NCBI GenBank assembly: GCA_965198235.1 | Contig: OZ240248.1 | Coordinates: forward strand, 2,976,001-3,040,000 | Direction: 5' to 3' | DNA length: 64,000 nt | Source: Candidatus Poribacteria bacterium | GTDB taxonomy: Bacteria; Poribacteria; WGA-4E; WGA-3G | Part shown: positions 3,262-64,000 of the stretch, one piece after another | Layout of the letters: each line of letters starts with the position of its first letter | Numbering within the stretch: the stretch's first letter is position 1 | Position numbers and translations under genes: made by a program | Notes under the pieces: generated by a model | Databases searched by the model: none | Told to the model about the DNA's origin: nothing | What the model saw: only the letters and a program-made list of their open reading frames with translations

Positions 3262-3393
3262 TTTTAATTTTACCTTGCGGTTCGGTCAGGTGAATTGATG
3301 AGAGACCGCCATTCGCCGTATATCTGAAGAAATACCCAAGCAATACGCAGAAATACCCTATCAAAAACACCCCTCCATTACATTACGGGCTAC
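3262..3393 (+). repeat. Dispersed repeat of the same family as 28602-28783, with nested micro-module
   Basis: Shares TTTTAAT..CCTTGCGGTTCGGT.AGG...CGTATATC...GGCTAC with the tandem copies at 28.6 kb. Confidence 0.75.
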
Positions 3394-3646
3394 GGTTTTG
3401 ATGTTATCTTAATTCGGAAACCTTCAGTTTCCGTCAATCCCAAGAGGAAGGCTCTGCGTTTTTTCGGGCATCTCCATCTAAAAGAACGTGCTACGGCCAA
3501 AATTGCACAAATTCTGGTTTAGAAAAAAGAGAGATGTGATATAATATTTTATGTGAAAGACATATAGAATAATTCGTTCACTTAACGTTTTAAGACTTCG
3601 TGTCGAATAAAAATTTGGGCATTTCGTATTTCATGGAGGCGTTCAA

Positions 3647-4417
3647 ATGAAACTGTTATATATAGGTGTTGCCTTGCTCTTATGTCTTAGCACCCTTTCA
3701 TGGGCATTAGAAGAGGATGATCCAGCAATCGTTGGGGTCTGGCTTTTTGAAGGCGATGTTAAAGATACAACAGCTAACGGCAATGATGGAAAGATTGTCG
3801 GAAATTTTAAGTTTGAAGACGGTAAATTCGGTAAAGCAGTCGTTGCGGGTGGAGGTGGTAGCATCGATGTGGCAGATTCAAAAAGCCTCCAGAGTGTCAG
3901 CGAAGAATTGACTGTAGCTGCCTGGTTCCGCGTAGATGCCGATTCAGATACCGGTGTCAGGAAAAACGGTGCCTATTTGTTAGAAGACCAGTCTGGCGGT
4001 GAACCGATACCTGACGGTTTCTCATTCAGAGTCTGGACAGCCAACGGTATTACACCCGGATTTTACGGCAAAACAGAATTAGAACAAGGAAAATGGCACC
4101 ATGTCGCCGGAACATACGATGGAAAAAATGTTGAGATGTACGTTGACGGTGAACCTGAGAGTAAAAAAGGGGCGTTGGCATCCAACAAGGCAGATTGGAA
4201 ACCAGAATGGGGGGGCAAGGTCGCCGCGGGTCAGGTATTGCAACTCAAATTCGGTCCAGAATCGTTCACCGGTGGTATTGACGAGATTGTTCTTGTCAAC
4301 CGTGCGCTTGAGGCGGATGAGATCCAGCAGTTGCTGAATGGGTGGGATGAAGCTTTTGCCGTTGAACCGGAAGGAAAACTGGCAACGACATGGGCGAGAG
4401 TAAAGGCAACTCGGTAA
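3647..4417 (+). CDS. Secreted LamG-like (concanavalin A) domain protein with TWG-type C-terminal tail
   Basis: Signal peptide; GKFGKA, WHHVAGTYDG, YVDG, GGIDE; ends AVEPEGKLATTWARVK. Confidence 0.88.
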   Translation: MKLLYIGVALLLCLSTLSWALEEDDPAIVGVWLFEGDVKDTTANGNDGKIVGNFKFEDGKFGKAVVAGGGGSIDVADSKSLQSVSEELTVAAWFRVDADSDTGVRKNGAYLLEDQSGGEPIPDGFSFRVWTANGITPGFYGKTELEQGKWHHVAGTYDGKNVEMYVDGEPESKKGALASNKADWKPEWGGKVAAGQVLQLKFGPESFTGGIDEIVLVNRALEADEIQQLLNGWDEAFAVEPEGKLATTWARVKATR

Positions 4418-4446
4418 GTTGATGAAAAAGTGAGTTAGGCGGAAGG

Positions 4447-4503
4447 TCGCGATTCGGAAACTGTTTCTACAACTAAGAATCGCGACCGGAAGGTCACTCC
4501 TAC
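4447..4503 (-). repeat. REP-like repeat pair (GTAG-hairpin type)
   Basis: TCGCGACCGGAAGGTCACTCCTAC matches copies near 49365 and 53771. Confidence 0.75.
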
Positions 4504-4515
4504 AGTTTTGAATTT

Positions 4516-6018
4516 GTGATTATGTTGGATAAATCAACTGGAATTGGAGAGGTTTTTACCCCGCTGAAATGGGCAAAGTGGCTCATCGACAAGTGGGATA
4601 TCTTCGACGCATGGATTGATGGTGCGCACATCTGTGACCCCACAGCAGGGAAAGGGGCATTCGTCCTCGCACTTCTGGACATCGCACATCGTGAAGGTGT
4701 CCCTATCACCCCCGAACGCTTATCACGCCTAACGCTCATCGAGATGAACGCTTCACATCTGGCGTGGTTTAGAAAAAACGTCAAACAAGAATTCGGTGTT
4801 GATTTCCCAACATCCCAACTCTTTTGCCAAGATGTGATCATGGAGTCGCACGCCGGAAAGTATGATCTTCTTATCGGGAACCCACCGTGGATGAATTTCG
4901 GGGATCTGCCATCGGATTACAAAACGCGTATAAAGCCTTTTTTTCTCGCAGAAGGGCTGGTGTCAGACAGACAGCGGCTGCTCTTAGGTTCCTCTCGTAT
5001 CGACATCGCCGCACTTGTTTTGAAGACCGTTCTCGGAAGATTGCTGAAAAAGAATGGTGTTGGATATTTTTACCTCCCGCTTTCCCTCTTTTTCGGTGAT
5101 GGCGCGCATAGCGGTTTTAGAAATTATCGCGCAAATCAGCGCGATTTCGCCGTAGACACGGTCTATGAATTCACATCGACCCAAGTGTTTCAAGGCGTTA
5201 ATACGTCATACTGTTGTGCTAAATTTCGGTGCGATACGCGCCAGACTTTCCCTGTTCCGTATTTCAGAGAATTGGACGGAGAATGGACTGAGCATAAGGC
5301 AGTACCACTTAATGATTCTGCAGATCCGTGGCGGATCGTGCGGAACCTCAACGAACTGAATACAGGTGGAGCCCTTAACGTTAACTTGTCGTCGACACAA
5401 ACACCGCGACAGGGTGTGAATACATGCGGTGCCAACAGCGTTTTTATTTTTCAAGACAAGCCCTCACACCTCCCTGAAGCGTTCCTATATCCGCTCGCGA
5501 CAAAGGAAATTTGGCGACAAGACGCATCGTTCCCTCATAAATGGATACTTCTACCGTATCATCGGCAAACAGGGAAACCGCTCATGCAGCACCAGATTGA
5601 ACAGCATACCCTCTTAAAAGACTATCTCCACAGTGCTGAAGAAATGCTACGATCCCGCAAGGGAACGCTTCTCCGATCGGCTATTGATAGAGGATATTGG
5701 TGGGGACTGCTTGGTGTCGGCACCTATGCGTTTGCACCGTTCAAAGTGATGTGGGAGGCGTATGGGAAAAGTCGGTTTAACCCAGTTGTGTTGGGTTGTA
5801 TAGATGGGCAGGCTTGGCAGGGCAACCAGTCGATGCATGCGTTCATCCCGTGCTGGTCTGAAGGTGCCGCACACAGGATTAAGAAGGCACTTGAGAATCC
5901 CGAAATTTCGACGCTATTGCGGCAACTCAATGGTGCGGGCAAATGCAATTGGGCACAACCGGGCAAAATCAAAAAAATTCTTTCGTTTAGAGAATCGCAT
6001 GAAACTCAAAAGGATTAG
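4516..6018 (+). CDS. Amino (probably N6-adenine) DNA methyltransferase, solitary
   Basis: GEVFTP, DPTAGKGAF (motif I), GNPPW (motif IV), C-terminal target-recognition-like region. Confidence 0.82.
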   Translation: MIMLDKSTGIGEVFTPLKWAKWLIDKWDIFDAWIDGAHICDPTAGKGAFVLALLDIAHREGVPITPERLSRLTLIEMNASHLAWFRKNVKQEFGVDFPTSQLFCQDVIMESHAGKYDLLIGNPPWMNFGDLPSDYKTRIKPFFLAEGLVSDRQRLLLGSSRIDIAALVLKTVLGRLLKKNGVGYFYLPLSLFFGDGAHSGFRNYRANQRDFAVDTVYEFTSTQVFQGVNTSYCCAKFRCDTRQTFPVPYFRELDGEWTEHKAVPLNDSADPWRIVRNLNELNTGGALNVNLSSTQTPRQGVNTCGANSVFIFQDKPSHLPEAFLYPLATKEIWRQDASFPHKWILLPYHRQTGKPLMQHQIEQHTLLKDYLHSAEEMLRSRKGTLLRSAIDRGYWWGLLGVGTYAFAPFKVMWEAYGKSRFNPVVLGCIDGQAWQGNQSMHAFIPCWSEGAAHRIKKALENPEISTLLRQLNGAGKCNWAQPGKIKKILSFRESHETQKD

Positions 6019-6026
6019 GCATATAC

Positions 6027-6968
6027 ATGACTCAACAAACAGGGTTCGCCTACCATCCAGACTATCTTAATCACGACACCGGTCCGAATCATCCGGAACG
6101 ACCAGACCGGCTACGCGCGAGTTTAGCAGCACTTCAAGAAAGTGATGTCTGGGAACAGTTACACCCCATCGAACCAACACCAGCAAGTGTCGCGCAACTC
6201 TGTTACGCACACGAACCAACCTATCCTGAACACATCCAACAATTTTCCGAACGAGAATTGCCCCTCACCTACGACACTCCCGTCGTGAAGGCTTCATTTG
6301 ATATAGCAAAACTTTCCGCGGGTGGGGTGCTGCGTATCGCGGATGCCGTCGTAACGGGAGCAGTGAAAAACGCCTTCGCTGTGGTACGTCCACCCGGACA
6401 TCACGCAACACAGAATCGGAGCATGGGGTTTTGCTTGTTCAATAATATCGCGATTGCGGCTCGTTATCTTCAGCGGGAACACGGCATTGGAAAGGTCGCG
6501 ATTGTAGACTGGGATGTTCATCACGGAAACGGCACACAAGACATTTTCTATGAAGATAGTTCTGTCTTCTTTTTCTCTATCCACCAGTCGCCCCTCTACC
6601 CCGGCACGGGTTCAAGCTATGAACGCGGGAGCGGAAAAGCACATGGCACAACGCTAAACATGCCAATGCCCGCGGGGAGCGGTGATAACGAATACATTGC
6701 AGTCTTTACGGATGTTCTCATTCCTACCTTAAAAGATTTCTCGCCTGAGGTCATATTAATTTCAGCAGGATTCGATGCGCACTACCTCGACCCGCTTGCC
6801 GGGACTGAACTCACAGCAGACGGATTTGCCACACTGACGGACCTAATTCTTGAATTTGCCGAGGAAACCGCATCGGGTCGTGTTGTCTCTGCGTTGGAAG
6901 GTGGTTATAGTTTAGAAGGGGTATCTGAATCCGTTGTAGCACATGTAGAACGTTTAGTTAAGGGATAG
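6027..6968 (+). CDS. Histone deacetylase family protein
   Basis: HPERPDRL, RPPGHHA, GFCLFNN, DWDVHHGNGTQ, SAGFDAH, LEGGY. Confidence 0.95.
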   Translation: MTQQTGFAYHPDYLNHDTGPNHPERPDRLRASLAALQESDVWEQLHPIEPTPASVAQLCYAHEPTYPEHIQQFSERELPLTYDTPVVKASFDIAKLSAGGVLRIADAVVTGAVKNAFAVVRPPGHHATQNRSMGFCLFNNIAIAARYLQREHGIGKVAIVDWDVHHGNGTQDIFYEDSSVFFFSIHQSPLYPGTGSSYERGSGKAHGTTLNMPMPAGSGDNEYIAVFTDVLIPTLKDFSPEVILISAGFDAHYLDPLAGTELTADGFATLTDLILEFAEETASGRVVSALEGGYSLEGVSESVVAHVERLVKG

Positions 6969-6981
6969 TGACTGCTTTCCG

Positions 6982-7222
6982 CTGCTGGCGAGGTTTGCAA
7001 CCTCGCCCACAATGTCCAAGTAATTATCTGAATCGCGGATTACACAGATTGCGCAGATTTTAGGCGTTCGCCTAAAGATAAGTTGGGATTTCGCCGAGAT
7101 GCCCTTAAGGAATGAGAGTGTTGGGTTTCGCGTTGAAGCACGTATGAGGAATTTGAGGGAAATGGAAGCCCAAAAGCAAGCATGGTTTTTGGGTGTTGTT
7201 TCTGTGCTCAACCCAACCTACA
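6982..7222. repeat. Cluster of REP-like repeats between convergent genes
   Basis: GCTGGCGAGGTTTGCAACCTCGCC hairpin; TCTGAATCGCGGATTACACAGATT (reverse-complement copy near 25380-25423); GTTGGGTT...AACCCAACCTAC. Confidence 0.7.
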
Positions 7223-7236
7223 TGCTGAACTGACAA

Positions 7237-7938
7237 TTATAGTTTCTTTCCAACGTGAATCGAAACGATACCGAATGTTTTTCGATAGAAATGTACATCT
7301 GTCAGTCCACACTGCTCCATAACCGCTTTCAGCGCATCACAATTCGGGAATTTCATGACGGAACGCGGAAGATACCCATAAGCGTCATCCTTGTTTCGGG
7401 AGATAAGGTTCCCGACAAAAGGCAGGATTTTGGTGAAATAGAAATAGTAGAGGCTCCGAAACAGTGGATTCACGGGCTGCGTAAACTCCAAAATAACGAC
7501 CCTACCTCCCGGTGCCACAACGCGTACCATCTCACGTATTCCTATCTCCAAATCTGAAACATTTCGGATACCGAAACCGACAGAGACAACGTCAAAAGTA
7601 TTGTCTAAAAAGGGAAGGATTAGGGTGTCCGCTGTCAGAAAGTTTGTGCCTGCCCCCCGCTCCCTCCGTTCCATCTTCTGATCGCCGATAACCAGCATCT
7701 CAAAGCAGAAGTCTGAAGCAATCACAAAACCTTCCGTCCCAATTTTATCAGCGTACGCAAGGGCGAGTTCCCCCGTACCGGTGCAGACATCCAGTACCTT
7801 ACTTCTTAAGTCCACACCGCTTGCCTTGACCGTTTCGCGTCGCCAAGCCCCGTCGCGTTTGAGACTTAAAAGGGCGTTGAGTAGGTCGTAGTGGCGCGCG
7901 ATGGCTGAAAACAGGTTCTTTATTCGATGGGCATGCAT
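7237..7938 (-). CDS. menG: Demethylmenaquinone methyltransferase UbiE/MenG
   Basis: YDLLN, VLDVCTGTGE, GFGIRNV, LEF, YGYLPRSV. Confidence 0.9.
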   Translation of the reverse strand: MHAHRIKNLFSAIARHYDLLNALLSLKRDGAWRRETVKASGVDLRSKVLDVCTGTGELALAYADKIGTEGFVIASDFCFEMLVIGDQKMERRERGAGTNFLTADTLILPFLDNTFDVVSVGFGIRNVSDLEIGIREMVRVVAPGGRVVILEFTQPVNPLFRSLYYFYFTKILPFVGNLISRNKDDAYGYLPRSVMKFPNCDALKAVMEQCGLTDVHFYRKTFGIVSIHVGKKL

Positions 7939-7951
7939 AGTCCTGATCGTC

Positions 7952-8048
7952 CATTTTTTAAACTACTTTTATTTATTGGCACCTGGGTGTTGTTCCACTA
8001 CGTTCCACAGTAACGGGCAGGGACCCCGGTTTTTGGTTAATTCCAACG
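7952..8048 (-). repeat. TTAACC...TTAAAAA dispersed element (MITE-like family)
   Basis: Reverse complement reads GTTGGAATTAACC...GTGGAACGTAGTGGAAC...TTAAAAAATG, matching 42241-42313. Confidence 0.75.
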
Positions 8049-8117
8049 GAGATCTGAACATGAACAGTCATCAAGAATCCATGTAGTCAGTCCATACGTC
8101 ACATCCGCAGCAGCATT

Positions 8118-10514: not shown

Positions 10515-10580
10515 CAAAGTTTTTCGGTCTGAAAACCCCCGATTTTAATAGGTGGGGGAAAACCGTCCTTTTTTTCTTCA
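10515..10580 (-). mobile_element. IS200/IS605-family right-end relic abutting the pheT start
   Basis: Reverse complement TTTTCCCCCACCTATTAAAATCGGGGGTTTTC...TTTG|ATGA; subterminal hairpin with TAAA loop of IS200/IS605 style. Confidence 0.5.
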
Positions 10581-10649
10581 TACAAAGTGTATAATAGTTT
10601 TATTACGTCAGCGAGCATACGAGTACGACAATTGTAAAACAGGCACGTT

Positions 10650-18968: not shown

Positions 18969-18970
18969 TC

Positions 18971-27191: not shown

Positions 27192-28604
27192 TTATCTTAA
27201 TTGCATTTCTGCGCACGGCACGATAATAGAATCCACCATGCCGTGTAGAATTTTCTTGTCGGCTGGACAGACTGCGGCTTGCATGCCCCCGAGTTTAACG
27301 GTGTTACCGACGACGAAATAGTATGGACGGAGCAGTGGACGGCACGCCATCTCTTGGACATCGCCAGCGTCGAAGTCGTAATACTGCATCCGTACCCGTT
27401 CGGCAGTGTGGAATTTCTGGAGGACGTGCGGACTTTTCTCGAAATTCTCAAGACTGTTTTCAATAACGGCTTCCCACTCCTCCGTAGGAAGATCGTGTCC
27501 GATCGCTACGCCGCGGCTCCCCCAAGCGAGTTCAGAGAAGCCCGACGGTTTGATAACCAATTCCCGTTGTTTTTGCGTCACGGAGCCGAGCTGCCGCCAA
27601 TCCGTTACGGCGTTTCCCTCCACCTCCAAATTGGGAATCACAGCATGCGGTGGTAAAGGACGTGCATCGATAACCCAAGTCTCTGGAATTGCTTGCTGTA
27701 GGAATGGGTAGGTTTTTTTGCCGAGATGCCGTTTCCAGAACGGTTGAAGCGTGGGATGATGGAAAAGCGCGAGGCACAATTTTTCTTCCAAATAGGATTT
27801 TGGCGGTGGGGTCATCACAACGGTGCGTTTCTTCGCACTATAGAACATTAACTCCGCTTTTGGGATATTGGGCAGATCAAACAATTCATAGAAGCGATAT
27901 AGTACGTCAACTTCCATCTTGCCTTCTGTCGTTTCAACAAGTAGCCCATCTTCGGTAAAAATTACCTCGTGCGGTTTGACGGTACGAGTCTCCACCCCTA
28001 CTTCGCAAAGTGCCGCGGCAAGCCATACCATCTCCGCCCAATAATCTTCCGATTCGTCTGAAACGACGATTGCGAGTGTAGGATTATCCTTCTTTGCCAG
28101 AGCCCGGATCATTTCGGCATATCCGTTCACCATCCCGTCGGTGCCGCCGATGATGCTATAGCCGAGTTGTGCGTAGAGCCGCCCTAAGCATCCTGTTGCC
28201 CCGATAAATCCGGGAATTGAGTCGAGTTCGGTAATCGCCATGCCGTCAGTGGTAGGGAGAATGTCGGGACGTAGCACGCCGGGTAATTGGCTCTTAAAAC
28301 GGTTCATCCGTCCATACTGGATGACTGTTTCCGGTTTTCCGAGCTCTAAGTACTCAGCCACCCAAGTGGGTTGAATACCCCGCACGCTTTGGGAATAGAG
28401 TAGATTGCAGGCGCGATAGAAATTTAAAAGATGCGTTCCGAGTTCCTCAAACCATCTCAAATCCGATGCGGGAATCCAGAACGGTTCCGGGGAGATGCGC
28501 CAAGAGGTGTTGCAATCTGGATGGACATCCCGTTTTTCTGCTTCAAATAGTTTCGCCTTCGGGATTTCGTCGTTAATAAATAGACATTTCTGTTTGGCAT
28601 CCAA
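27192..28604 (-). CDS. Circularly permuted ATP-grasp / glutathionylspermidine synthase-like ligase
   Basis: RPD...ITELDSIPG, YRFYELFD, EEKL, VIKPSG, WGSRGV, VLQKF; TTG start. Confidence 0.65.
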   Translation of the reverse strand: MDAKQKCLFINDEIPKAKLFEAEKRDVHPDCNTSWRISPEPFWIPASDLRWFEELGTHLLNFYRACNLLYSQSVRGIQPTWVAEYLELGKPETVIQYGRMNRFKSQLPGVLRPDILPTTDGMAITELDSIPGFIGATGCLGRLYAQLGYSIIGGTDGMVNGYAEMIRALAKKDNPTLAIVVSDESEDYWAEMVWLAAALCEVGVETRTVKPHEVIFTEDGLLVETTEGKMEVDVLYRFYELFDLPNIPKAELMFYSAKKRTVVMTPPPKSYLEEKLCLALFHHPTLQPFWKRHLGKKTYPFLQQAIPETWVIDARPLPPHAVIPNLEVEGNAVTDWRQLGSVTQKQRELVIKPSGFSELAWGSRGVAIGHDLPTEEWEAVIENSLENFEKSPHVLQKFHTAERVRMQYYDFDAGDVQEMACRPLLRPYYFVVGNTVKLGGMQAAVCPADKKILHGMVDSIIVPCAEMQLR

Positions 28605-28783
28605 TTTTTAATTATTCCTTGCGGTTCGGTTAGGATAATTGGGTGAATGACGTTACTCGGCGTATATCCGCCTGCGCCGTTGTTGCAGGCTACAATTTTT
28701 AATTATTCCTTGCGGTTCGGTTAGGATAATTGGGTGAATGACGTTGCTCTCCGTATATCCGCCTGCGCCGTTGTTGCAGGCTA
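28602..28783. repeat. Tandem duplication, 2 x 91 bp
   Basis: 28602-28692 and 28693-28783 are near-identical. Confidence 0.92.
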
Positions 28784-28813
28784 CCATTACCGTATTAAAA
28801 GCCTCGTCTGCTG

Positions 28814-35173: not shown

Positions 35174-35281
35174 AATTTGTCCGGGTGCGCGCTTCTGAAT
35201 CGCAATAATGTAATACAAGGAATGGATTTAGTCTATTTCCAGATTAAATCCGGTTCTCAGCGCGCACTCTCTATCTACTTT

Positions 35282-36126: not shown

Positions 36127-36310
36127 GGTGGTTGGAATTAACCGAAAACCACCGTGAAACGTTTTTTAAACGATGAGCCTCTGAACTGCTCTCCATTACA
36201 TTGCGAGCAGGTTTCAGATTTATTCAGTTGCTTTCCTTTAAAAACCCCGTAGGGGTGAAATCTCTGTAGAGGAACGGTGCCCAGATTTAATAGTTAAAAA
36301 AGTTAAAAAA
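36127..36310 (+). repeat. Composite repeat cluster ending at the ATG of 36311
   Basis: GTTGGAATTAACCGAAAAC; CCCCGTAGGGGTGAAATCTCTGTAGAG; TGCCCAGATTTAATAGTTAAAA. Confidence 0.75.
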
Positions 36311-37141: not shown

Positions 37142-37980
37142 ACATTCGTCCGGACGATTTTGTCTTAGAAATAGGGAGCGGTCATAATCCGAAAGCACGC
37201 TCGGATGTTTTATGTGATAAATTTATATCGGACGACGAACAACGCGGCGGTGCAATCGTCACTGACCGCCCGATAGTGGAAGCGGATGGTCAGTTTTTGC
37301 CATTTGCAGACCGGGCGTTTGACTATGTTATCTGCTCGCATGTATTGGAGCACGTCGAAGATCCTGTGCAACTTATCACCGAATTAGAGCGCGTTGCACG
37401 CCGTGGATATATTGAAACACCCTCTGAAATAGGGGAGCGAATCTACGGCTGGCACTATCATAACTGGGTGGTCAACCTTGTTGATGGCTGTTTGATGCTG
37501 CGGAGGAATGAGAGAGATTCCCAGTTCGGACAACTCTTCCATAGGCTGGCGGCGACGGATAAGCATTGGAAACGGTTTCATCTTACGCATCATCACCTCT
37601 TGCTGGTCGAGTATGAATGGGAAAACGAAATAAACTATAAAATACTTCCCGATCAAAAGCCAGCATTGAACTTAGAATGCCCAGATACCCTTGAGAGACT
37701 CATTGCATCGGATAATAACACCTCAGGACAGAGTGAGTGGCTGCTACTTCTTAAAAACGTAGTACCGCGGCGCGTCGTTTCTCAGACAAAATCGCTCTTG
37801 GTAAGAAGCAAACGTCGCCAGACGAAAACATTACAGGAAATTCTCGTCTGCCCGCAGTGTAAAGGCGAGATTACATGGGAAGAACAGCGTCTCCACTGCG
37901 AAGTGTGTGAACGACACTATCCAATTGTGGATGGAATTCCGAGATTCTCTATAGACATTGCCCCCCGCTGGGGTGCTTAA
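37138..37980 (+). CDS. Methyltransferase type 11 with C-terminal Trm112-like zinc domain
   Basis: VLEIGSG, CSHVLEHV; ILVCPQCKG...CEVCERHYPIVDGIP; ATGA overlap with the upstream gene. Confidence 0.82.
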   Translation: MNIRPDDFVLEIGSGHNPKARSDVLCDKFISDDEQRGGAIVTDRPIVEADGQFLPFADRAFDYVICSHVLEHVEDPVQLITELERVARRGYIETPSEIGERIYGWHYHNWVVNLVDGCLMLRRNERDSQFGQLFHRLAATDKHWKRFHLTHHHLLLVEYEWENEINYKILPDQKPALNLECPDTLERLIASDNNTSGQSEWLLLLKNVVPRRVVSQTKSLLVRSKRRQTKTLQEILVCPQCKGEITWEEQRLHCEVCERHYPIVDGIPRFSIDIAPRWGA

Positions 37981-42310: not shown

Positions 42311-42802
42311 ATGAAAGAGCAATTAACGCACTTTGACGAAAAAGGCAACACGCGAATGGTGAATGTCGGTGGCAAAGACGAGACACTGCGTATTGCCATC
42401 GCTCGTGGACATATTACTGCCCTTCCTGAAACACTCCGTCTCATCGCTGAACAAGGTATGAAGAAAGGCGATGTTTTAGAGGTCGCACGGCTTGCGGGTA
42501 TCATGGCGGCAAAACGCACCGGTGAACTGATCCCGTTGTGTCATCCCCTCGCATTGACTTCGATTCGTGTTGAACTCGCCATCGCAGATGATGTGTCGCA
42601 GGTTGAAATTGAAGCGGAAGTCCAGACGGTGGGTCGTACAGGCGTAGAAATGGAAGCACTCACCGCCGTGTCAGTCGCGGCTTTGACCGTTTATGACATG
42701 TGTAAGGCAGTGGACAGGGAGATGATTATCGGTGATGTTAGGCTTGTCAAAAAAACAGGCGGTAAAAGTGGCACTTTCATACAGAAGAATAGCCGTCAGT
42801 AG
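42311..42802 (+). CDS. moaC: Cyclic pyranopterin monophosphate synthase
   Basis: [42 protein letters not shown]. Confidence 0.97.
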
Positions 42803-43016
42803 TCAGTCATTCGTTATCAGTTAAAAGAGGACTGTGATAGTCTTGTGAAAAAAGAAATGAAGAAACACCCAAGCAAAAACACACCTCTTGTGACTGAAAA
42901 CTGAAAGGATTTTTTGAAAAAAATCCGCACTGACTGCTGATAACTACTCCCTCAGAGATACAAAGGACACGGTTTCCAGTTCTAATACATAGTTGCCCCA
43001 AATGAGGTATGTAGCA

Positions 43017-48299: not shown

Positions 48300-49390
48300 A
48301 ACTTATGACCGCCATACACGGTAGGTGCGGTTTCCTAACCGCAAAAATCCTCCAAACATTTTAGACACCCTGCTGGCGAGGTTTGATGAAGATTAAGAAT
48401 TATTTAATGTGGTAATGTAGAGCGTCCATTGTCTGAACTGTGATTTTTGTGATTATGGGATTTCTGTGATAAGAGACGCTTGTGGATTGGAAAGTGTCCT
48501 TTACAGAATTACCGAAATATTTATTTAACCTTCATCAACCGTACTGGGTTCCTTCTAACCACTCTACAGATACACTGCTGGCGAGGTTTCCTATAGGAAA
48601 TCCGCAGAAATCCGCAGAAATCCGCAGGGAAATACGCAGGGAAACACCCTATCAAAAACCCCAAGCAAAGACCCCAAGCAAAAACCCCTCGTCTTTTCTT
48701 TTTTTAGGACTTACGCACTTCCTCTTGAAGTCCCCCTGATAAGGGGGATTTAGGGGGTTAAATAACTGAAATACTCTCACTGCGAGGCATTTTTGGGTGA
48801 AATCTATTGCTTCTTTACGCAATTTGCGTAAGTCCTGTTTTTATTTCTTACCAAAACGACACGCTGGACGCACCCGCCTTACGGGACTACAATCACTTTC
48901 CCAACGACCATTGCTAATTGCTGGCGACTGACCACTGATTGCTGACTGCCGATCGCTATTCAATGCGGCGAGTTTCAAAGTATTCAGAGTAAAATCTGAA
49001 AAGTGATGGATTTCAAGTAGGCTGTAAACTTAGACGATTATTGGGTTTTGAAGGGTTTTGATAGAAGGTTTCTGAAATGCTTACTCTGAAATTTCAGAGT
49101 AGACAGAGGAGGTTTCGTAGCGTAAACTTTTAGTTTGCGCACTCGTGGGAAACCCAATCTAAAAGATTATGCTACAAAGGTGGCAACTTAGGTTACTTTA
49201 GTTTTCACGGAGGCTTCACGGAGTTTTTATCGCCGTAGGTGGGCCGTGGGTTCCCAGGAGTCAATATACCCCTTCTCCGTGAAAAAACGAACGTGAAATT
49301 ATATTTAACTTACTGTATTGATGTTTTTAAGACTGGATATTGCTATCCATGCAGTGCAGAATATCGCGACCAGAGGTCGCTCCTACAGCA
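48300..49390. repeat. Repeat-dense non-coding region with many repeat families
   Basis: GTAGGTGCGGTTTCCTAACCGCA, GCTGGCGAGGTTT x2, (GAAATCCGCA)x3, CCCCAAGCAAA x2, CTGATAAGGGGGATTTAGGGGG, TCGCGACCAGAGGTCGCTCCTAC. Confidence 0.75.
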
Positions 49391-53638: not shown

Positions 53639-53955
53639 TAGTGCGATTCATCGCACGTCAAAGATAAAATGAAACCTGAAACTTCTGACAACCGAAAAAA
53701 TATTACCATTTCCAAATACCTCATCCAAAGCAATTCAATCTTCAGTCTTCCGATTATTTTCCCCAGAGTGTCGCGACCGGGAGGTCGCTCCTACAGAAGA
53801 GGGAGTGTTTTTGCTTGGGTGTTTCCCCAGGATTCGGAGATCCCTTCTACCGAATTTTCCTTGCTTTATTGGCAGCGTATTGGTATAATTAAGGACAAAG
53901 AACCCTGAAACTTCCAGTGAACGTTCACAATCCCAAGAGAGCCCACGTTCATAGC

Positions 53956-56167: not shown

Positions 56168-56177
56168 ATTTTGGAAC

Positions 56178-57644: not shown

Positions 57645-57699
57645 GTGTTTTTATAATCTTAACCATCAACTCGTGCTTTAACACTTATAACGGAGGCGA

Positions 57700-57957
57700 G
57701 TTGAGGGTTAAAGTTAACAGTTTTCAGTTTTCAGTTAAGAGATTTTAATGTAACAATTCACCAGTTCTTGGAGTATTCCAAGTTAGGGTAGATTTTTACA
57801 GAATAGTTATCAGAGGGAATGATTATCAGTCATCAGTTATCGGTTATCGGTTAAAGAGGTGCTTTGTTTAACCAAGGGGAAACACCCTATCAAAAACACC
57901 TCTTTTAACTCTCACTGCGAGGCAAACTGACAACTGACAACTGATAACTATAAAAAT
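57700..57957. repeat. Heptamer-like (ACTGACA/TCAGTTA) repeats and micro-modules upstream of the TPR gene
   Basis: CAGTTTT x2, TTATCAG/TTATCGG runs, GAAACACCCTATCAAAAAC, CTCACTGCGAGGCA, ACTGACAACTGACAACTGATA. Confidence 0.65.
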
Positions 57958-58674
57958 ATGAAATTACAACTACCGACACTCATCGCCGTCTGTCTTGCTA
58001 TCCTGCTCATTGGTGGTATCTACTTCTTCGGTAGAGACAAGGCAGAATTGGGAATCGCCGTTAATTTGGAAAGTGAAGAATTCAAGCAACTCTGCACGCA
58101 TGCCACTGATGCATTCAACGCCGGGAAATATCAACAAGCCATTGAACTTTACAGCGACGCGTTAAAGATGCGTCCCGAAAACGCTGAAGTCTATAACGAC
58201 CTCGGAACCGTCTACTACGAGCAAGGTCTCAGATACGCCGGACCGAGTTGGCCCTCGTGGGAAAAAGAGTTGAGGGAAGACTCCGTTGATCAGGCAATCG
58301 CGGAACTTAAAGTCGCTGTCGACAAAACGGGGTCGGGTGCCGTCATGTTCAAAACACGAGACGAAACGGTCGCTGATGCCATTGAAGAAGAGGCAAAACA
58401 ACTCGGCGGAGGTGTATATAGACAGCGTTGGGAAAATGAAACAACGCTTAACGTTCTAATTGGACAAACGAAAGTCTATATGCTGCGCGCTCGCGACCAT
58501 TACATCCGTGCTTTGGATCTGAAACCTACGCATAGTGTCGCTTATCGCAACCTCGGTTCATTTTATATGAAGGTAGGCAGAACCGATAAAGCACTCGATT
58601 ACTATCAAGAGGCGTACAGGTTAGATCCAAGGGATGCCGAGTTAGAAGAATACCTGAATCAGTTCCGAAAGTAA
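57958..58674 (+). CDS. Membrane-anchored TPR protein
   Basis: N-terminal TM helix; TPR units AEVYNDLG and AYRNLG. Confidence 0.82.
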   Translation: MKLQLPTLIAVCLAILLIGGIYFFGRDKAELGIAVNLESEEFKQLCTHATDAFNAGKYQQAIELYSDALKMRPENAEVYNDLGTVYYEQGLRYAGPSWPSWEKELREDSVDQAIAELKVAVDKTGSGAVMFKTRDETVADAIEEEAKQLGGGVYRQRWENETTLNVLIGQTKVYMLRARDHYIRALDLKPTHSVAYRNLGSFYMKVGRTDKALDYYQEAYRLDPRDAELEEYLNQFRK

Positions 58675-58881
58675 TTTTTAACTATTAAATCTGGGCATCG
58701 TTCCAAATGTAAAGCATTCTCACTGCGAAGCAAAATTATGCCATTTAAGGAAACCTAATTTCGTTCCACGATGGTTTCTGGTTAAGTACGAAAGGGTTTC
58801 AGCGAACCTGCCCGGTTTGCATTGCACCAAAAACCTGCCTGAAACGAAGTGGAAGGCAGCCCAGGAGCAATAAATTAAAAA
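58675..58881. repeat. Inverted pair of TTAACC...TTAAAAA elements filling the intergenic space
   Basis: TTTTAACTATTAAATCTGGGCA...GGTTTCTGGTTAAGTACG; GCAGCCCAGGAGCAATAAATTAAAAATG. Confidence 0.75.
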
Positions 58882-61800
58882 ATGCATCACAAACGCTGCC
58901 CAAATTGTGGGTTCTTGAACCCGCCGTTCAAATTTTGCGGTGAATGTGGAACGTCCCTTGATAGTCCCTCACGTCCACGTCAAATTCCAGCAGTAGATAC
59001 CGCTGTCATGGAACAAGTATTACCGCATGGGGCAGAACGCCGCCAGTTAACCGTCCTTTTCTGTGATATTGTCGACTCCACCGCATTCACCGAAAAATTG
59101 GATCCCGAAGAACTCCGAAATCTTTTAGAGGTATACCGGACATGTATCATGGAGGTGGTTTTAGCACAAAATGGACATATCGCACGTTACTTTGGTGATG
59201 GTATCCTTGTTTATTTCGGTTACCCAATTACACACGAAGACGCAGCACACCGCGCCGTCCGAGCCGCGTTAGGTATTGTTGCCGCTATTGAGACGCTGAA
59301 CCCGTATCTCCAGGCTACCTTTGGCGTGGAAATCAACGTCCGACTTAGTATTGATACAGGGCTTGTTGTCGTCTGGCATATATCGGCGGAAGAATCTCCC
59401 GAGGCAATTGACATCGTCGGTAAAACGCCAAATGTCGCCGCAAGGATGCAAAAGTTAGCAACGCCGAACGGCATTGTCATTGGTGATACGACACATCAAT
59501 TGGTTGATGGCTTTTTTAACACCGCTGCACTCGGTGCTTCCCCACTTCGTGGCATTTCGCAACCCGTGAATGTGTATCAGGTGTCAGGTGAAATTCCTGC
59601 ACAGAGCCGATTGGATATTGCCAGCGAAAGTGGATTAACCCCTTTAATCGGGCGCGAGCGCGAGGTTGAATCACTCAAGCAGAGTTGGGCACAGGTACTG
59701 GCATCTAAAGGGCAAGCACTGCTTATTGAGGGGGAAGCCGGCATCGGAAAGTCAAGGTGTTTGCAACTCATTCAAGAGTCCGTCGAGCATCACCCAGAAG
59801 CAGTGACCATGGAATGCAGATGCTCGCCCTATTACCAGAACAGTCCGCTCTATCCTATTCTTTCGCTGTTCCAAGAGCACGTTGTACAGTTTACCAACAC
59901 CGATACCGCACAGACGCACCTTGACAAACTTGAGAATTTACTGCGCGACTACAACATCCCAACCGTCGGAGGTGATACGGCGTCCCTTTCAAATTCAGAT
60001 CGTGAAGTACAAGAGCATACGCCGGAGACCCTGCCACTTCTTGCCGAATTATTGGAGATACCTTTTGAGGTGCAACAACAAACGGTAACCGGTGTAGGCA
60101 CTCGCCCCTACGGTAGACCCGTTGAACAGGCCACATATCCATCAGGTTGGGGACGCCGACAGCGCCGACAGCAGACTTTGGAAGTGCTTGTTCAAGTCCT
60201 ACTGAAGATGGCTGAACAAAAGCCGATACTTTTTGTCGTTGAAGATCTCCACTGGATTGACCCCTCCAGCATAGAATTTCTTACACTCTTGATTACACGG
60301 ATCGAAAATGCTCGGATTTTCGCAGTTTTGTCCTGTCGCTCTGGTACGCAACCCTATAGACATGTTGAAGAAACACCCAAGCAAAAACCCCCGCTGGGGC
60401 TGAAGGGGGAAGGGCGAGAGATGGGCACGCCACACGGGAGTCGGGAATCGGAGTTCTCTCCTACCGAAATTCTGGATGGAGAAGTGCTGGAGCAACTTCT
60501 ACATCCAGAGTGGGCAAATGCGCTGACGTTGGCAGCACTCACGCCTCCGCAGGTGGAGGAGATGATTCAGCACGTCGCAGGGGACACAGCACTGCCATCG
60601 GAGGTGTTGACACGGATTATCGAAATGACCGAGGGTGTCCCTCTATTTGTTGAGGAACTCACCCAGATGATGCTTGAAAATGTATCGGGGTTACAAACCC
60701 CTCCCACATCTGAGGTGTCCGATGGAACAGATCCACATTCTCAAACAATGGAGGTGCCTGTAACGCTACAGGATTTACTGACAGCGAGATTAGACGAACT
60801 CGGTGCTGCGAAGGAGATCGTCCAACTCGGTGCAACGCTTGGAAGGGAATGGACAGCTGAATTATTACACGAGATTGCTTCTGGGATTGATCTGGAAAAT
60901 CGTCTTTTCACTGATTTCGCCTCGTTGAAAGGTGAATTGAACAAACTCGTAAACGCCTACATCCTCAATCGAAATCAGGTGGCTGACAATCAACTACGCT
61001 ATACGTTCCGACATCCGCTCCTGCGTGAGACAGCGTATCAATCTCTACTCAGGAGTAGGCGACAGCAGTACCATCAACAGATTGCAGAGGTGTTGCAAGG
61101 CGGTGGCGGTTTCCAACCCGAGTTGGTGGCACATCATTACACCGAAGCAGGTCTCCCTGAAAAAGCGATTGACTATTGGCACCGTGCCGGGCAACGTGCA
61201 CTTGAGCGTTCTGCAAACGTGGAGGGTATTCGCCATATCACACAGGGGCTTGCGGCACTTGAGGAACTTTCGACGAACGCCAGCGCACGAGAGTTGGAGG
61301 CTACCGCTCAGCGAGAATTGGAGCTGCAAACGATTCTGGGTAGCGCGCTCATTGCGACAAAAGGGTATGCCGCACCGGAAGTCGAGGTCGCCTATACGCG
61401 GGCGAGGGAGCTACTGGAAACACTTGAAAGTAAGGAACCGACCTTAGAAGGAAACACTGATTCTTCACTTGACCGCATAAAAGATCTCCGCTTTCCGATT
61501 CTGTTTGGATTATGGCTCTCTCATCTCGTGCGTGGACGATTCCTCTCTGCACGTGAACTCGGTGAACAGTGCTTTGTAATTGCCAAGCAAGTCGGAGACC
61601 CAGCTTTCGAGGTAGAGGCGCATCGAGCCCTCGGTGCAACGCTTTACTATTTAAGTGAATTCAAAGATGCATTAGCACATCTTGAGGCAGGAATTGAACT
61701 CTATCAACCGCAGCACCACCCGGTCCCGACATTTCTGCACTTCGTAGCCGATCCCGGGATGACGCTGCTCGCCTATTCTGCACCGCTCTTATGGTGTCTT

Positions 61801-62574
61801 GGCTATCCTCTGCAAGCAGAAGAACGACTTGCCGAAGCCGCAAGGATTGGAAGGGACAGAAGCCATCCTTTTAGTGATGCTGTGTTGCTCCATTTTAAAG
61901 CTGTGCTTTATCAACATCAAGATGAAGTAGAGGAAGTGGAGACCACCGCAACGCAGATGCTACAGATATGTCAAGAGCATGGATTTTCCCTTTGGGAAGC
62001 CGCCGCAACGGTGATGAAGGGTTGGGCACTCACAGAACTGAATCACTCAGAAGAGGGCATCGCGATGATACGTAAGGGCATTGCCGCATGGGAAAAGACA
62101 AGGGCTGAATTGCAACTACCGCTCTTTCTTGCACTGCTTGCACAAGCATATCAACGCGCAGGACAGTATACATTAGCCTTGCAAACACTTGATTCTGCCT
62201 TGAGTGTTGTCACACGAACAGGCGAGCGCGCCTATGATGCGGAACTCACTCGGCGGAAAGGCGAACTCTGTCTCGTCCTCGGTAAAGAGACCGAGATTGT
62301 TGGCGGAAAGGACACGACTTCTACTGTTGTAAAGGCTGAATCCTATTTTCAGGAGGCATTAGCGATAGCGCGCCGCCAAGGCGCAAAATCATGGGAGCTC
62401 CGAGCCGCTCTCAGTTTGAGCGAATTGTGGTGCACGCAAGACCGTTGTCGGGAAGCGTACAATTTGCTGAGACCGATATATCTATGGTTTTCGGAAGGTT
62501 TTGATACGAAAGACCTCCGACAGGCGAAACACCTGTTGAAAAAGCTGCAGGAAGTTAATCATAGCAACAAGTAA
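58882..62574 (+). CDS. Class III adenylate/guanylate cyclase with zinc ribbon, AAA/STAND ATPase and TPR domains
   Basis: CPNCG...FCGECG; ERRQLTVLFCDIVDST; GDG; PNVAARMQ; GEAGIGKSR; EDLHWID; SWELRAA. Confidence 0.92.
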   Translation: MHHKRCPNCGFLNPPFKFCGECGTSLDSPSRPRQIPAVDTAVMEQVLPHGAERRQLTVLFCDIVDSTAFTEKLDPEELRNLLEVYRTCIMEVVLAQNGHIARYFGDGILVYFGYPITHEDAAHRAVRAALGIVAAIETLNPYLQATFGVEINVRLSIDTGLVVVWHISAEESPEAIDIVGKTPNVAARMQKLATPNGIVIGDTTHQLVDGFFNTAALGASPLRGISQPVNVYQVSGEIPAQSRLDIASESGLTPLIGREREVESLKQSWAQVLASKGQALLIEGEAGIGKSRCLQLIQESVEHHPEAVTMECRCSPYYQNSPLYPILSLFQEHVVQFTNTDTAQTHLDKLENLLRDYNIPTVGGDTASLSNSDREVQEHTPETLPLLAELLEIPFEVQQQTVTGVGTRPYGRPVEQATYPSGWGRRQRRQQTLEVLVQVLLKMAEQKPILFVVEDLHWIDPSSIEFLTLLITRIENARIFAVLSCRSGTQPYRHVEETPKQKPPLGLKGEGREMGTPHGSRESEFSPTEILDGEVLEQLLHPEWANALTLAALTPPQVEEMIQHVAGDTALPSEVLTRIIEMTEGVPLFVEELTQMMLENVSGLQTPPTSEVSDGTDPHSQTMEVPVTLQDLLTARLDELGAAKEIVQLGATLGREWTAELLHEIASGIDLENRLFTDFASLKGELNKLVNAYILNRNQVADNQLRYTFRHPLLRETAYQSLLRSRRQQYHQQIAEVLQGGGGFQPELVAHHYTEAGLPEKAIDYWHRAGQRALERSANVEGIRHITQGLAALEELSTNASARELEATAQRELELQTILGSALIATKGYAAPEVEVAYTRARELLETLESKEPTLEGNTDSSLDRIKDLRFPILFGLWLSHLVRGRFLSARELGEQCFVIAKQVGDPAFEVEAHRALGATLYYLSEFKDALAHLEAGIELYQPQHHPVPTFLHFVADPGMTLLAYSAPLLWCLGYPLQAEERLAEAARIGRDRSHPFSDAVLLHFKAVLYQHQDEVEEVETTATQMLQICQEHGFSLWEAAATVMKGWALTELNHSEEGIAMIRKGIAAWEKTRAELQLPLFLALLAQAYQRAGQYTLALQTLDSALSVVTRTGERAYDAELTRRKGELCLVLGKETEIVGGKDTTSTVVKAESYFQEALAIARRQGAKSWELRAALSLSELWCTQDRCREAYNLLRPIYLWFSEGFDTKDLRQAKHLLKKLQEVNHSNK

Positions 62575-62593
62575 ACAGAATCGTTCAGTTTTC

Positions 62594-62697
62594 CCGTAGG
62601 AGGATCTCCGAATCCCGACTTCTGATGACTGATAACTGAGAACTATGTAGGAGGGATCTCCGAATCCCGACTCTTGCTGACGGCTAACTGACAACTA
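62594..62697 (+). repeat. Two REP-like GTAGGAG(G)GATCTCCGAATCCCGA copies with heptamer tails
   Basis: Near-identical to 47421-47444; reverse-complement relatives near 53830 and 60437. Confidence 0.8.
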
Positions 62698-62714
62698 TTT
62701 GGGAGGGGAACATT

Positions 62715-63575
62715 ATGAGACTTGGCGTTGTTGGGCTCTGTGGGGACTTTTGCACCCTCACATCGGATGAGATCGCAAAAATCAAAGCGTTAGAGTTTAC
62801 CGGTTTAAGTTTCCATTTCCGCAGCGCCGAGATTCCATCTGTACCGCCAGATGCTGATACCCGCTGTGTGCAAATGTTAGAAGCCGCGGAACTTGACCTT
62901 GTGCAATTCGGCATAACTTACGAGGAATGCCTTTTTCATCCAAATGCCGCTGTCCGAAAAGCAGGTATTGCCAGCGTCCAACGCGGCATGGCAACCGCTG
63001 CCTCTCTCAATGCACACCATTATCTATTTCGTGCAGGTAGCCTCAACCCTGATGGTGCTTGGACATCCCATCGAGATAACCATCTACCAGAATCGATGGA
63101 ACGGTTGATTGACACTTTGAAACCAATTGCAGAACATGCCGAACGGCACGAACTGACCCTTGTTATGGAAACACATGCAGTTTCAATTATGGATTCACCA
63201 GAAACCTGTCGCGAGGTGGTGGAGCGTGTCGGTTCCGAAAGGCTTCGCATTGTCATGGATTTCGTCAATCACTTTCAAACACTTCGACAGGTCTATGAGA
63301 GCGAGGCACGGCTTAACCACATTTTCGATGTCATGGGACCGGTCGCGCCGATGGCGCATATCAAAGACATCAGCGTGCAGAACGGTTTGGTCCTCCATCT
63401 CGATGAAGAGGTACCCGGCGAGGGTGAATTGGCACTTGGTGTAGCATTAAAACGTTTTGACGCACTCTATCCCGATGGCTACGGATTGATAGAACATCTC
63501 CCTGCGGAGAAAATCCCACTCGCGAACGCGAATGTCCGGCGAATTGCCGCCGAAAACGGAGTCCATATTTTTTAA
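62715..63575 (+). CDS. Sugar phosphate isomerase/epimerase (TIM barrel)
   Basis: VMETH, MDFVN, AHIKD, PGEG, IEH. Confidence 0.85.
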   Translation: MRLGVVGLCGDFCTLTSDEIAKIKALEFTGLSFHFRSAEIPSVPPDADTRCVQMLEAAELDLVQFGITYEECLFHPNAAVRKAGIASVQRGMATAASLNAHHYLFRAGSLNPDGAWTSHRDNHLPESMERLIDTLKPIAEHAERHELTLVMETHAVSIMDSPETCREVVERVGSERLRIVMDFVNHFQTLRQVYESEARLNHIFDVMGPVAPMAHIKDISVQNGLVLHLDEEVPGEGELALGVALKRFDALYPDGYGLIEHLPAEKIPLANANVRRIAAENGVHIF

Positions 63576-63646
63576 ACTGTTTTTTACTTATTAAGCTCCT
63601 GGACATCGTTTCACGATGGTGTCCGGTGAATTTCAAAGGAGTTTTG

Positions 63647-64000
63647 ATGATGAAAGGTTTTCTAAGGACATTCATATTCCCCTCTCCACCCCGTAGGGGG
63701 TTTTTGCTTGGGTGTTTTTTCAAAATCTCTGTAGAGAGAATAGCATGCTTAATTCTTGTTTCGATCTTTTTCATACTTCTGCACTCAGCGTTCGGGCAAG
63801 AATCCAATGTTGTTGAGGAGGTCCAAAAACAGGCGCAGAGTTGGTGGTCAAACACGCAGGTCTACGTTGGGGTTATCCTTCTCGTCTTTATAATCAGTAG
63901 CGTTGGATATGTAATAAGGCTCTTTAAAAAAGACAAACTTCTTAAGAAGCTTCTGAATAAATACGTCGTTTTTCAGATGAAGGATGGCAGACGTTACCGA
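63647..64000 (+). CDS. Membrane/exported hypothetical protein, runs off the window edge (not in ORF track)
   Basis: AAGGAG RBS; MMKGFLRT...LILVSIFFILLHSAFGQE...VYVGVILLVFIISSVGYVIRLFKKDK. Confidence 0.65.
   Translation, partial: MMKGFLRTFIFPSPPRRGFLLGCFFKISVERIACLILVSIFFILLHSAFGQESNVVEEVQKQAQSWWSNTQVYVGVILLVFIISSVGYVIRLFKKDKLLKKLLNKYVVFQMKDGRRYR

Follow-up and report, generated by a model that had tools for sequence, protein, structure and literature searches.

A 64,000-nt window of a Candidatus Poribacteria genome (C1:2976001–3040000; positions below are counted from the first letter of the window) carries a module of 22 nt which recurs, singly or as arrays, inside repeats that are otherwise unrelated. 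Here and in related genomes 22–23 nt have been inserted de novo into existing DNA, in one orientation and 5' of the trinucleotide A/C-C-C/T. Copies have also been carried along as host repeats or larger composites moved, and arrays have lengthened and shortened by sub-units of 10 and 13 nt. We suggest, with a probability of roughly 0.4, that one Poribacteria genus harbours the module as a very small dispersed repeat which propagates itself, and which is written by an HUH/Y1-like or other dedicated enzyme. The assembly, coded G000 here, comprises 5.17 Mb in two contigs without N, has a G+C content of 48% and is 96% complete; codes of the same kind denote its relatives.

The original prediction, made on the window alone, placed the 23-mer TGAAGAAACACCCAAGCAAAAAC at 42858–42880 and 60366–60388, exact and on the plus strand, and at 63700–63722 on the minus strand with one mismatch. 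These copies were all recovered, as was a minus-strand match with two mismatches at 53807–53829. The four matches compare with an expectation of zero, none of 100 shuffles having produced one. In the whole genome the 23-mer occurs 17 times exactly and 160 times at three or fewer mismatches, and the module core CCCAAGCAAAAA is the most frequent 12-mer of the genome (260 copies). The canonical module is a 22-mer, often with a T ahead of it, made up of four purines (RRRG) and the 18-nt body AAACACCCAAGCAAAAAC, of which there are 96 exact genome occurrences; its core is AAG or TAT, the TAT-core variant reading CCCTATCAAAAAC.

Arrays were delimited with a parser based upon a grammar of three units: GAAAYNCGCA (10 nt), GAAAYNCCC[AAG/TAT]CAA followed by AAAC or TACGCA, and CCC[AAG/TAT]CAAAAAC (13 nt). 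It yielded 318 stretches, of which 23 were discarded because they lacked a CCC-AAG/TAT-CAA core and did not reach two 10-mers. The 295 arrays kept lie on both strands (132 plus, 163 minus) with no regional pattern. Of these, 143 are the canonical 22-mer and the remainder lengthen, to as much as 198 nt, via the 10- and 13-nt sub-units. Among the canonical copies the purines are GGGG in 53, GAAG in 40, AAAG in 15, AGGG in 13, GAGG in 11 and others in 11, and the body is exactly AAACACCCAAGCAAAAAC in 69. Judged by a tandem-repeat criterion, most of the 152 non-canonical arrays are multi-unit and the 143 single units are scattered through unrelated contexts. Three stretches previously listed as mere variants of the 23-mer proved to be true arrays of the module (3326–3368, 57876–57897 and 48595–48685, only the 3' half of the last having been noted). 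The lack of inverted repeats was likewise upheld, the 23-mer having a minimum free energy of 0 on both strands and no stem-loop; neither terminal inverted repeats nor target-site duplication was found for the module.

The claim that three host repeats of the window exist both with and without the module was confirmed by reading the sites. The repetitive extragenic palindromic sequence (REP) at 37949–37973 has its filled counterpart, CTATAGACAT-GT-[23-mer]-CCCCGCTGGGG, at 60354–60399, and that at 36245–36271 has the same host with a reversed module at 63689–63736. The hosts at 28661–28693 and 28752–28784 read CGTATATC-CG-CCTGCGCC..GGCTAC and are filled at 3317–3393. These had been taken for several different host families. 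Many hosts do indeed exist, but the first two of the three belong to one REP superfamily, with a CTAYAGASAT tag and a G+C hairpin.

The joined 40-nt flanks of each array were searched against the genome for empty sites. At least one paralogous site spanning the junction without the module exists for 168 of the 295 arrays, and there are approximately 756 distinct empty-like sites. Paralogue alignments disclose the following unrelated hosts, with the replaced nucleotides in the middle: GGCGAGGTTTC-AA-ACCTCGCC, GTTAACCATC-A-ACTCGTGC, CTCCTGGGC-TG-CCTTCCAC, CTACAGAGATTT-C-ACCCCTACGGGG, CCGTAGATC-CG-CCCTCCATT, GCGAGCAC-AG-CTCGCTCC, GTAGGAGGG-AA-CTCCGATT and GGTGCGGTTTCCTA-|-ACCGCACC, in the last of which nothing is replaced. 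The insertion swaps out 0–2 nt in these alignments, and no target duplication is seen. REP-type hosts account for 18 of the 295 arrays, always between tag and hairpin and in 17 of the 18 with a GAAG-type module; at least 132 REPs of the CTAYAGASAT type are in the empty state. The module also nests in inverted copies of itself, as GTTTTTGCTT-[module]-GGTGTTTC (7 arrays, families F10 and F17), and in a 16-nt dispersed motif, GTTCAACC^..ACCTAC. The motif (C)GTTCAACCCAACCTAC, present in the genome in 115 copies with varied flanks and in the window at 7209–7221 (+), hosts the module between CAACC and ACCTAC.

Strict clustering of the flanks sorted the arrays into 173 clusters. Of these, 145 are singletons, many of them visibly diverged short hairpin hosts, and the other 28 have at least two members; one array per cluster was used. 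The first base of the right flank is A in 56% and C in 36%, the second C in 88%, and the third C in 68% and T in 23%. Pooled, the right flank is A/C (92%), C (88%) and C/T (91%), with the module always in the same orientation and just 5' of it. The left flank is nearly uninformative (T in 46% at position −1), and each of the last seven positions of the module's 3' end, CAAAAAC, is conserved in 89–98% of the clusters. The consistent target feature is therefore the trinucleotide A/C-C-C/T on the 3' side. A stem of at least 6 bp bridges or abuts the module in 13–15% of the clusters, compared with 7–8% of controls, and on these figures we rejected the idea that the module always lies in hairpin loops. 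The original prediction of a short fixed sequence repeatedly written into REP-like hairpins thus stands as regards repeated, precise writing into existing repeats, but not as regards restriction to hairpins, given the 18 of 295 arrays with REP-type hosts.

Genome-wide counting, classification of flanks and comparison of orthologous loci, which had been proposed as checks, revealed gains on terminal branches with readable junctions. The window region is syntenic across the genus. The host GTAGCCCGTAATGAAATGGAGGG-CG-GCTCGAAC is filled in G012 only and is empty, with identical flanks, in sister G056, G054, G067 and G068: CG has been replaced by 23 nt in one change on a terminal branch. A second orthologue scan covered 31 arrays in seven syntenic regions and provided 10 informative sites. 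At one, the host copy is filled in G014 alone, while G018 (with an identical left flank), G061, G065, G024 and G006 have it empty. The host position ATC-CG-CCY carries a GAAG-type insert in G000 and G012 and an AGGGG-type insert in G014. Different donors have therefore hit one host position, so that homology within the host family is not required, and homologous conversion within a family, which had been among the processes proposed, cannot explain the cross-family event in G014.

The intergenic region 57650–57955 was compared across 30 genomes, using a tree of the flanking genes with a midpoint root only. Its hairpin host (57849–57909; folding energy −11 kcal/mol, z −3.1) is filled in G000, G018 and G020 and empty in G061, G014, G048, G059 and G051, requiring at least two changes. 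The neighbouring palindromic host (57659–57711) carries a reversed module in its 3' arm, again 5' of ACTC, in G018, G013 and G061 and is empty in G000, G019, G041 and G014, requiring at least three. Paralogues of the latter host in G000 are filled in the 5' arm (family F2, 14 filled copies).

One might instead regard the filled copies as ancestral and the empty ones as products of deletion in the respective repeat families. Through slippage at its internal direct repeats the module could shed 13-nt units, and the hairpin host, empty in the G014/G061 clade which intervenes between filled genomes, needs either a loss or a second gain. As a main explanation, however, deletion is already contradicted by the terminal-branch gains, G012 and G014 being the sole filled genomes among 5 and 6 orthologous copies. 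On the midpoint-rooted tree the clade lying farthest away (G048, G059, G051) has an empty hairpin host, the same module is found across unrelated host families, and the approximately 756 empty-like sites stand against 295 arrays. We consider this explanation very improbable.

Transport with larger pieces is also evident. The copy at 42859 lies in a composite, 42780–42953, which is present only in G000 among the four genomes compared; G018, G014 and G024 have 2–11 nt in its place. Since the whole composite is missing in the relatives, this copy is the passenger of a larger insert. The composite consists of heptamer-like runs (CAGTAGT/CAGTCAT), the module-bearing hairpin and one further hairpin, GGATTTTTTGAAAAAAATCC. 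The gain in the G014/G061/G065 clade comprises the module, ATTT and ACCCCTCC, where G000, G018, G024 and G006 have the sequence without them.

Within host families the 22-mers are 0.86–1.00 identical, compared with 0.47–0.92 for the 40-nt flanks (0.96 versus 0.63 and 0.64 in family F1), bearing in mind that the outer flank may exceed the host repeat and that an offset of 1–2 nt readily affects ungapped 12-nt comparisons. The 18-nt body is 0.951 identical inside a family and 0.915 from one family to another. Filled copies at orthologous sites have diverged to about the same degree as the DNA flanking them, for example at 3 of 23 positions between G024 and G006 at site 63700. Because they drift in this way, the uniformity within a genome reflects recent copying and not constraint.

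How might so short a sequence be written? Elements of the IS200/IS605 group, which are mobilized by HUH/Y1 enzymes, cause no target duplication, insert in a fixed orientation and recognize a target on one side only. We favour a dedicated cut-and-join activity because the ends of the module are constant over 173 contexts, because different donors have arrived at the same position and because the consensus has persisted throughout the genus, and we favour the HUH/Y1 type because the absence of duplication, the one-sided target and the fixed orientation match its pattern. In the writing step an enzyme of the HUH/Y1 type (IS200-like or RAYT-like, that is, REP-associated tyrosine transposase), or another dedicated one, would cut and join single strands in a sequence-specific manner. 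The module would then be a minimal substrate that retains only its ends, GAAACRCCC and CAAAAAC, with a core of 3 nt between them, and changes in array length would arise by slippage between its internal direct repeat (AAAC-MCC ... AAAAC-MCY).

The genome possesses six Y1 transposase genes (PF01797 profile). Three are IS605-like with TnpB adjacent, and two of these (TnpA + TnpB) are 99% identical copies of 1848 nt at C1:4379.9–4381.9 kb and 4791.2–4793.2 kb, starting at the left end with TTATCAAACC and bearing the hairpins CCCAATCCTTTAGG(G/T)TTGGG at both ends. The likeness of this left end to the TAT variant amounts to no more than a 7-mer. The three stand-alone Y1 genes are bracketed by inverted REPs, TCTATAGACAT-NN-GCACTCCGCTGGAGTGC or CACCCCTACGGGGTG, which are the first two host families of the window, here empty. 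One stand-alone protein was scanned; it passes the IS200 model NF033573 (72.4 bits, cut-off 55) and falls below the cut-off of the RAYT model NF047646 (28.2 bits against 80), so that the REP-flanked Y1 gene is RAYT-like by genomic context only. No module array was found within 3 kb of four of the six Y1 genes. The RAYT/HUH transfer suggested in the original prediction is thus upheld as far as six Y1 genes, three of them flanked by REPs used as hosts, are concerned, but none of these enzymes is tied to the writing.

Several observations weigh against the proposal of a dedicated HUH/Y1-like enzyme. The module is hairpin-less (minimum free energy 0), and every Y1 substrate known to us needs a hairpin. 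No link between the module and any enzyme was found. The replacement of 1–2 nt and the variable purines fit clean cut-and-paste poorly, and larger pieces move too (the 174-nt composite 42780–42953; module + ATTT + ACCCCTCC). The purine type and the right flank's first base are correlated (G-rich 60 A:15 C, GAAG 12 A:31 C), perhaps because over-split clusters share ancestry or because of an unexplained constraint. Y1 genes are present in 60 of the 61 genus genomes, and the exception, G074, lacks the module, but this correlation is not specific because G074 is also nearly without host repeats (3 matches to the abundant host repeat, compared with 13–262 elsewhere). G052 has five Y1 matches yet no exact module copy. 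Lastly, the cumulative GC skew of the genome offers no two-arm pattern usable for detecting a replication-strand bias.

The main rival to HUH/Y1-type insertion dispenses with a dedicated enzyme. Template switching or synthesis-dependent repair guided by microhomology (MCY, reading RGK on the opposite strand) would supply new copies, followed by ectopic conversion between paralogues; a strand stalled during synthesis in repeat-rich DNA would anneal to a filled copy elsewhere, copy the module and return. The right junction does echo the module interior (GAAAC-ACC inside, AAAAC-ACC at the junction), and the 1–2 nt replaced, the variable 5' purines, the changes by 13-nt units, the inverted nesting in F10 and F17 and the failure to tie an enzyme to the module all agree with such copying. 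On the other hand, one would expect more scatter than an invariant 3' end and a 5' variation confined to four purines over 173 contexts, and three nucleotides of homology are very few. Both host flanks are untouched in the G012 and G014 events, and in G014 a donor of another type landed exactly at the usual position of the family. We regard microhomology-templated copying as possible if rather unlikely, and rank single-strand insertion of the HUH/Y1 type above it.

If the dedicated enzyme is real, a bolder form of the proposal, which we hold to be doubtful, is that the module may be the smallest transposable unit yet seen: 22 nt with no hairpin, recognized by a sequence-specific enzyme conserved in the genus and directed to A/C-C-C/T targets. 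The two ends, GAAACRCCC and CAAAAAC, around the 3-nt core might accommodate cargo such as a 48-nt hairpin element or the 33-nt insert in G024, both described below. A Y1/HUH protein could use the hairpin of the host repeat in lieu of one in the module, or the activity could be one as yet undescribed.

The templating of the module by a reverse transcriptase had also been proposed, and a telomerase-like enzyme which copies a short RNA template reiteratively might be imagined, as arrays of 10- and 13-nt units resemble reiterated template copying. However, PF00078 (RVT_1) gave no matches in this 96% complete genome, while a control search was positive in 3 of 14 reference genomes, and replication slippage explains the arrays equally well. 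The likelihood of this mechanism is, in our view, slight in the extreme.

Alternatively the module could be a functional site under selection, bound by a protein or RNA or acting as the T-rich tail of a terminator on the opposite strand, with recombination supplying the copies. The reverse strand of the REP-type hosts does show a G+C hairpin and then GTTTTTGCTT. Outside the open reading frames (ORFs), which span 85% of the genome, lie 212 of the 295 arrays; these ORFs were called crudely, by greedy selection of the longest, and the 74 arrays counted as inside an ORF are a number inflated by over-long starts. Arrays that run antisense to both neighbouring genes are mildly in excess (93 vs 65). 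Yet divergent intergenic regions hold 39 arrays and convergent ones 24, against a background of 493 and 494, which is the opposite of the expectation for terminators. Moreover, orthologous copies drift like their flanks, arrays reach 198 nt, copies occur inside coding DNA, species differ in copy number, from 0 to 195, and Rfam at gathering threshold has no match within the window. Selection on a functional site is thus an improbable origin for the module.

With regard to distribution, a 19-mer of the module (at most one mismatch) is present in all 24 of the other genus genomes searched, in 9–195 copies compared with 179 in G000, and in none of 16 genomes from other genera of the order. The exact 18-mer occurs in 61 of 64 other genus genomes, G052, G074 and G127 having none; G024, G009 and G073 are among the module-rich ones. 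In the remaining genera of the family it was found in 4 of 40 genomes of g13 (1–4 copies, several on short contigs), in the single genome of g12, and in none of six genomes of three further genera. By these sequence counts the module is nearly genus-specific. G074 (4.4 Mb, 95% complete) lacks the module and Y1 genes alike, has hardly any copies of the abundant host repeat, and looks like a lineage cleared of repeats. The relatives of a 1230-aa protein encoded in the window amount to 44 loci (72–90% identity), all assigned to Candidatus or uncultured Poribacteria or to "uncultured bacterium."

An adapter or assembly artefact, raised as a possible refutation, is excluded, since the module is present in all 24 other genus assemblies searched and at syntenic sites. 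In public Logan contigs, which represent mixed related Poribacteria, X16 alone yields 1187 pieces at least 99% alike to the window, and the sequence therefore exists outside this assembly. No clean module-sized joint was found in these contigs; the joints 60352>60475 and 57655>57951 only repeat the states of the relatives' genomes.

The copies and hosts within the window are collected in Table 1.

Table 1. Module copies and empty hosts in the window, in order of position.
Feature	Position	Strand	Context
43-nt array, GAAG-type, two units	3326–3368	+	in host repeat 3317–3393, CGTATATC..GGCTAC family
Two empty hosts, CGTATATC-CG-CCTGCGCCGTTGTTGCAGGCTAC	28661–28693, 28752–28784	+	in tandem of ~91-nt units
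Empty REP, CCCCGTAGGGG-TG-AAATCTCTGTAGAG	36245–36271	-	tag on minus strand: CTCTACAGAGATTT-CA-CCCCTACGGGG
Empty REP, CTATAGACAT-TG-CCCCCCGCTGGGG	37949–37973	+	by site reading
Canonical 22-mer (exact 23-mer with preceding T)	42859–42880	+	inside 174-nt composite 42780–42953
91-nt array	48595–48685	+	three GAAATCCGCA, then GAAATACGCA, then CCCTATCAAAAAC / CCCAAGCAA(A/G)AC units; adjoins GGCGAGG arm
Canonical 22-mer, GGGG-type	53807–53828	-	host CTGTAGGAGGGATCTCCGAATCC..ACTCCCTCTTCTGTAGGAGCGACC
Palindromic host, TTAACCATCAACTCG..CGAGTTGAGGGTTAA, empty in G000	57659–57711	+	by orthologue comparison
22-mer, TAT variant	57876–57897	+	in loop of 12-bp hairpin, host 57849–57909
22-mer	60367–60388	+	between tag and hairpin of REP 60354–60399; in frame in ORF 58882–62574
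22-mer, GAAA-type, one mismatch	63700–63721	-	between tag and hairpin of REP 63689–63736

The state of several of these sites in other genomes could be read. Site 3326 is empty in G065 (..TATATTCG|CCCTCC..) and filled in G024, where an extra 33-nt insert lies inside the module. No orthologous anchors for the array 48595–48685 were found in four relatives. The host family of the copy at 53807 (F8, CTGTAGGAGGGATCTCCGAATCC..ACTCCCTCTTCTGTAGGAGCGACC) has 5 filled and about 15 empty copies in the genome. At site 63700 diverged filled copies occur in G024 and G006, and another, empty REP in G018, G014, G061 and G065.

The module had been held to have no coding capacity. This does not apply to the copy at 60366, which is translated in frame within the 1230-aa product of ORF 58882–62574, a Guanylate_cyc-AAA_16-TPR protein. 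The REP and module occupy residues ~492–530 (..QPYRHVEETPKQKPPLGLKGEG..), in the linker directly after the AAA_16 domain, and the gene is intact. Its orthologues have a different linker of 97–133 nt there; in G056 and G012 an empty REP stands at the same spot, and the others have no REP.

The tandem at 28540–28790 belongs to the most abundant longer repeat of the genome, whose ~91-nt unit reads ..TTCCTTGCGGTTCGGT..CGTATATCC-GCCTGCGCCGTTGTTGCAGGCTAC and whose 12-mer CCTTGCGGTTCG is present in 141 copies. The module can enter it at two distinct sites, one on each strand, and in contig C2 (16490–16583) a single copy of the repeat has both filled.

The module is itself a host. Its centre harbours a 48-nt element, ACCGGATTTAGTCTGGGAATAGACTAAATCCATTCCTTGTATTACATT, with an 11-bp hairpin, between GAAAYA and GCAAAAAC (about 11 copies), sometimes with duplicated sub-units of the module. 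Four copies of the element occur without a surrounding module, one of them in the window at ~35206–35254 (-). The 33-nt insert of G024 is different in sequence and lies at the same inner position of the module. Two other short repeats were observed. The 12-mer AGGACTTACGCA has 126 genome copies, including 48706–48717 (+) and 48825–48836 (-) in the window; in 14 copies compared the flanks look unrelated on both sides, and in some instances ..CTCTTAAAGTCCCCCTGATAAGGGGGATTTA follows. The 12-mer may serve as a regulatory site or be one more tiny repeat. The 14-mer TCTCACTGCGAAGC (81 copies in G000) occurs in reverse in the loop of a GCCTGC..GCAGGC hairpin of G018; the same host copy is plain in other genomes, and this small insert acts like the module.

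The closest parallel known to us is that of the small dispersed repeats (SDRs) of Nostoc punctiforme and its relatives, reportedly described by Elhai et al. in 2008 (Genome Res 18:1484) as dispersed repeats of 21–27 nt lying precisely within other repeats. Their hosts are said to include heptamer tandems, mini-transposons and other SDRs, with both filled and empty sites, and the mechanism of mobility was reportedly left open, SDR4-6 being said to share a predicted secondary structure. A passage in PMC3116915 treats SDRs as short repeats of unexplained origin, and two passages on SDRs in citing papers, this one among them, name no mechanism. The present module resembles SDRs in size (22 nt in 143 of 295 arrays), in its high copy number and dispersal, and in nesting precisely in other repeats, including small ones, at sites both filled and empty. 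Its hosts are REPs, repeats of ~90–115 nt, the 16-nt motif and inverted self-copies; a second small element lies inside it, and it occurs in hairpins flanked by the heptamer runs CAGTTAT/CGGTTAT (window 57800–57950). Unlike SDRs, it is found in Poribacteria and not in cyanobacteria and builds arrays of sub-units, and in contrast to SDR4-6 it has no secondary structure. It is at most an analogue of SDRs, not a member, the likeness being one of description.

Other comparisons are looser. In the bacterial interspersed mosaic elements (BIMEs) of E. coli, REPs are combined with short conserved linker motifs. Similarly, a short, conserved and non-palindromic module stands directly beside REP hairpins here (the tag-hairpin gap in 18 arrays), but it lies mostly outside REPs (18 of 295 inside), and the polymorphism of filled and empty sites shows that it arrived separately. 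REPs are described in a passage of PMC2817692 as forming composite mosaic elements. Like the REPIN-RAYT (REP doublet and transposase) and IS200/IS605 systems, the module duplicates no target, keeps to one orientation and has a short one-sided target, and the genome has stand-alone Y1 genes flanked by inverted REPs as well as IS605-like TnpA + TnpB copies. However, the module is not an imperfect palindrome as REPs and REPINs are, its host REPs flank three Y1 genes and not one single-copy RAYT, and in comparison with IS200/IS605 miniatures it has no subterminal hairpins and is far shorter than any known substrate. Miniature inverted-repeat transposable elements are likewise non-coding, multi-copy, mostly intergenic and nested, but the module has neither terminal inverted repeats nor target duplication and measures 22 nt against their 70–300 nt. 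Rickettsia palindromic elements insert in frame in genes, as the REP and module at 60354–60399 do in the intact 1230-aa gene; this is a single in-frame case, and most module arrays are intergenic. Among the papers listed for Poribacteria and repeats of these kinds, apart from supplements that perhaps hold repeat annotations, no description of the module or of non-coding Poribacteria repeats was found; to judge by titles and opening lines of abstracts, part of them appear to deal with sponge microbiomes in general and with CRISPR. A literature search with four 13-mers of the module gave two matches, both unrelated.

The module thus provides a second, unrelated case of mobile repeats of ~20–27 nt, in another phylum than that of Nostoc. 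At least 65 species-level genomes of the genus, many of them closed and at least 20 of those searched in a single contig, carry from 0 to ~195 copies, and gains can be read to the base. Comparative genomics and a simple assay with oligonucleotides can thus address the target rule, the choice of donor and the candidate enzyme. The word that these sponge-symbiont genomes use most often is a mobile insert which reshapes REPs, hairpins and at least one protein linker.

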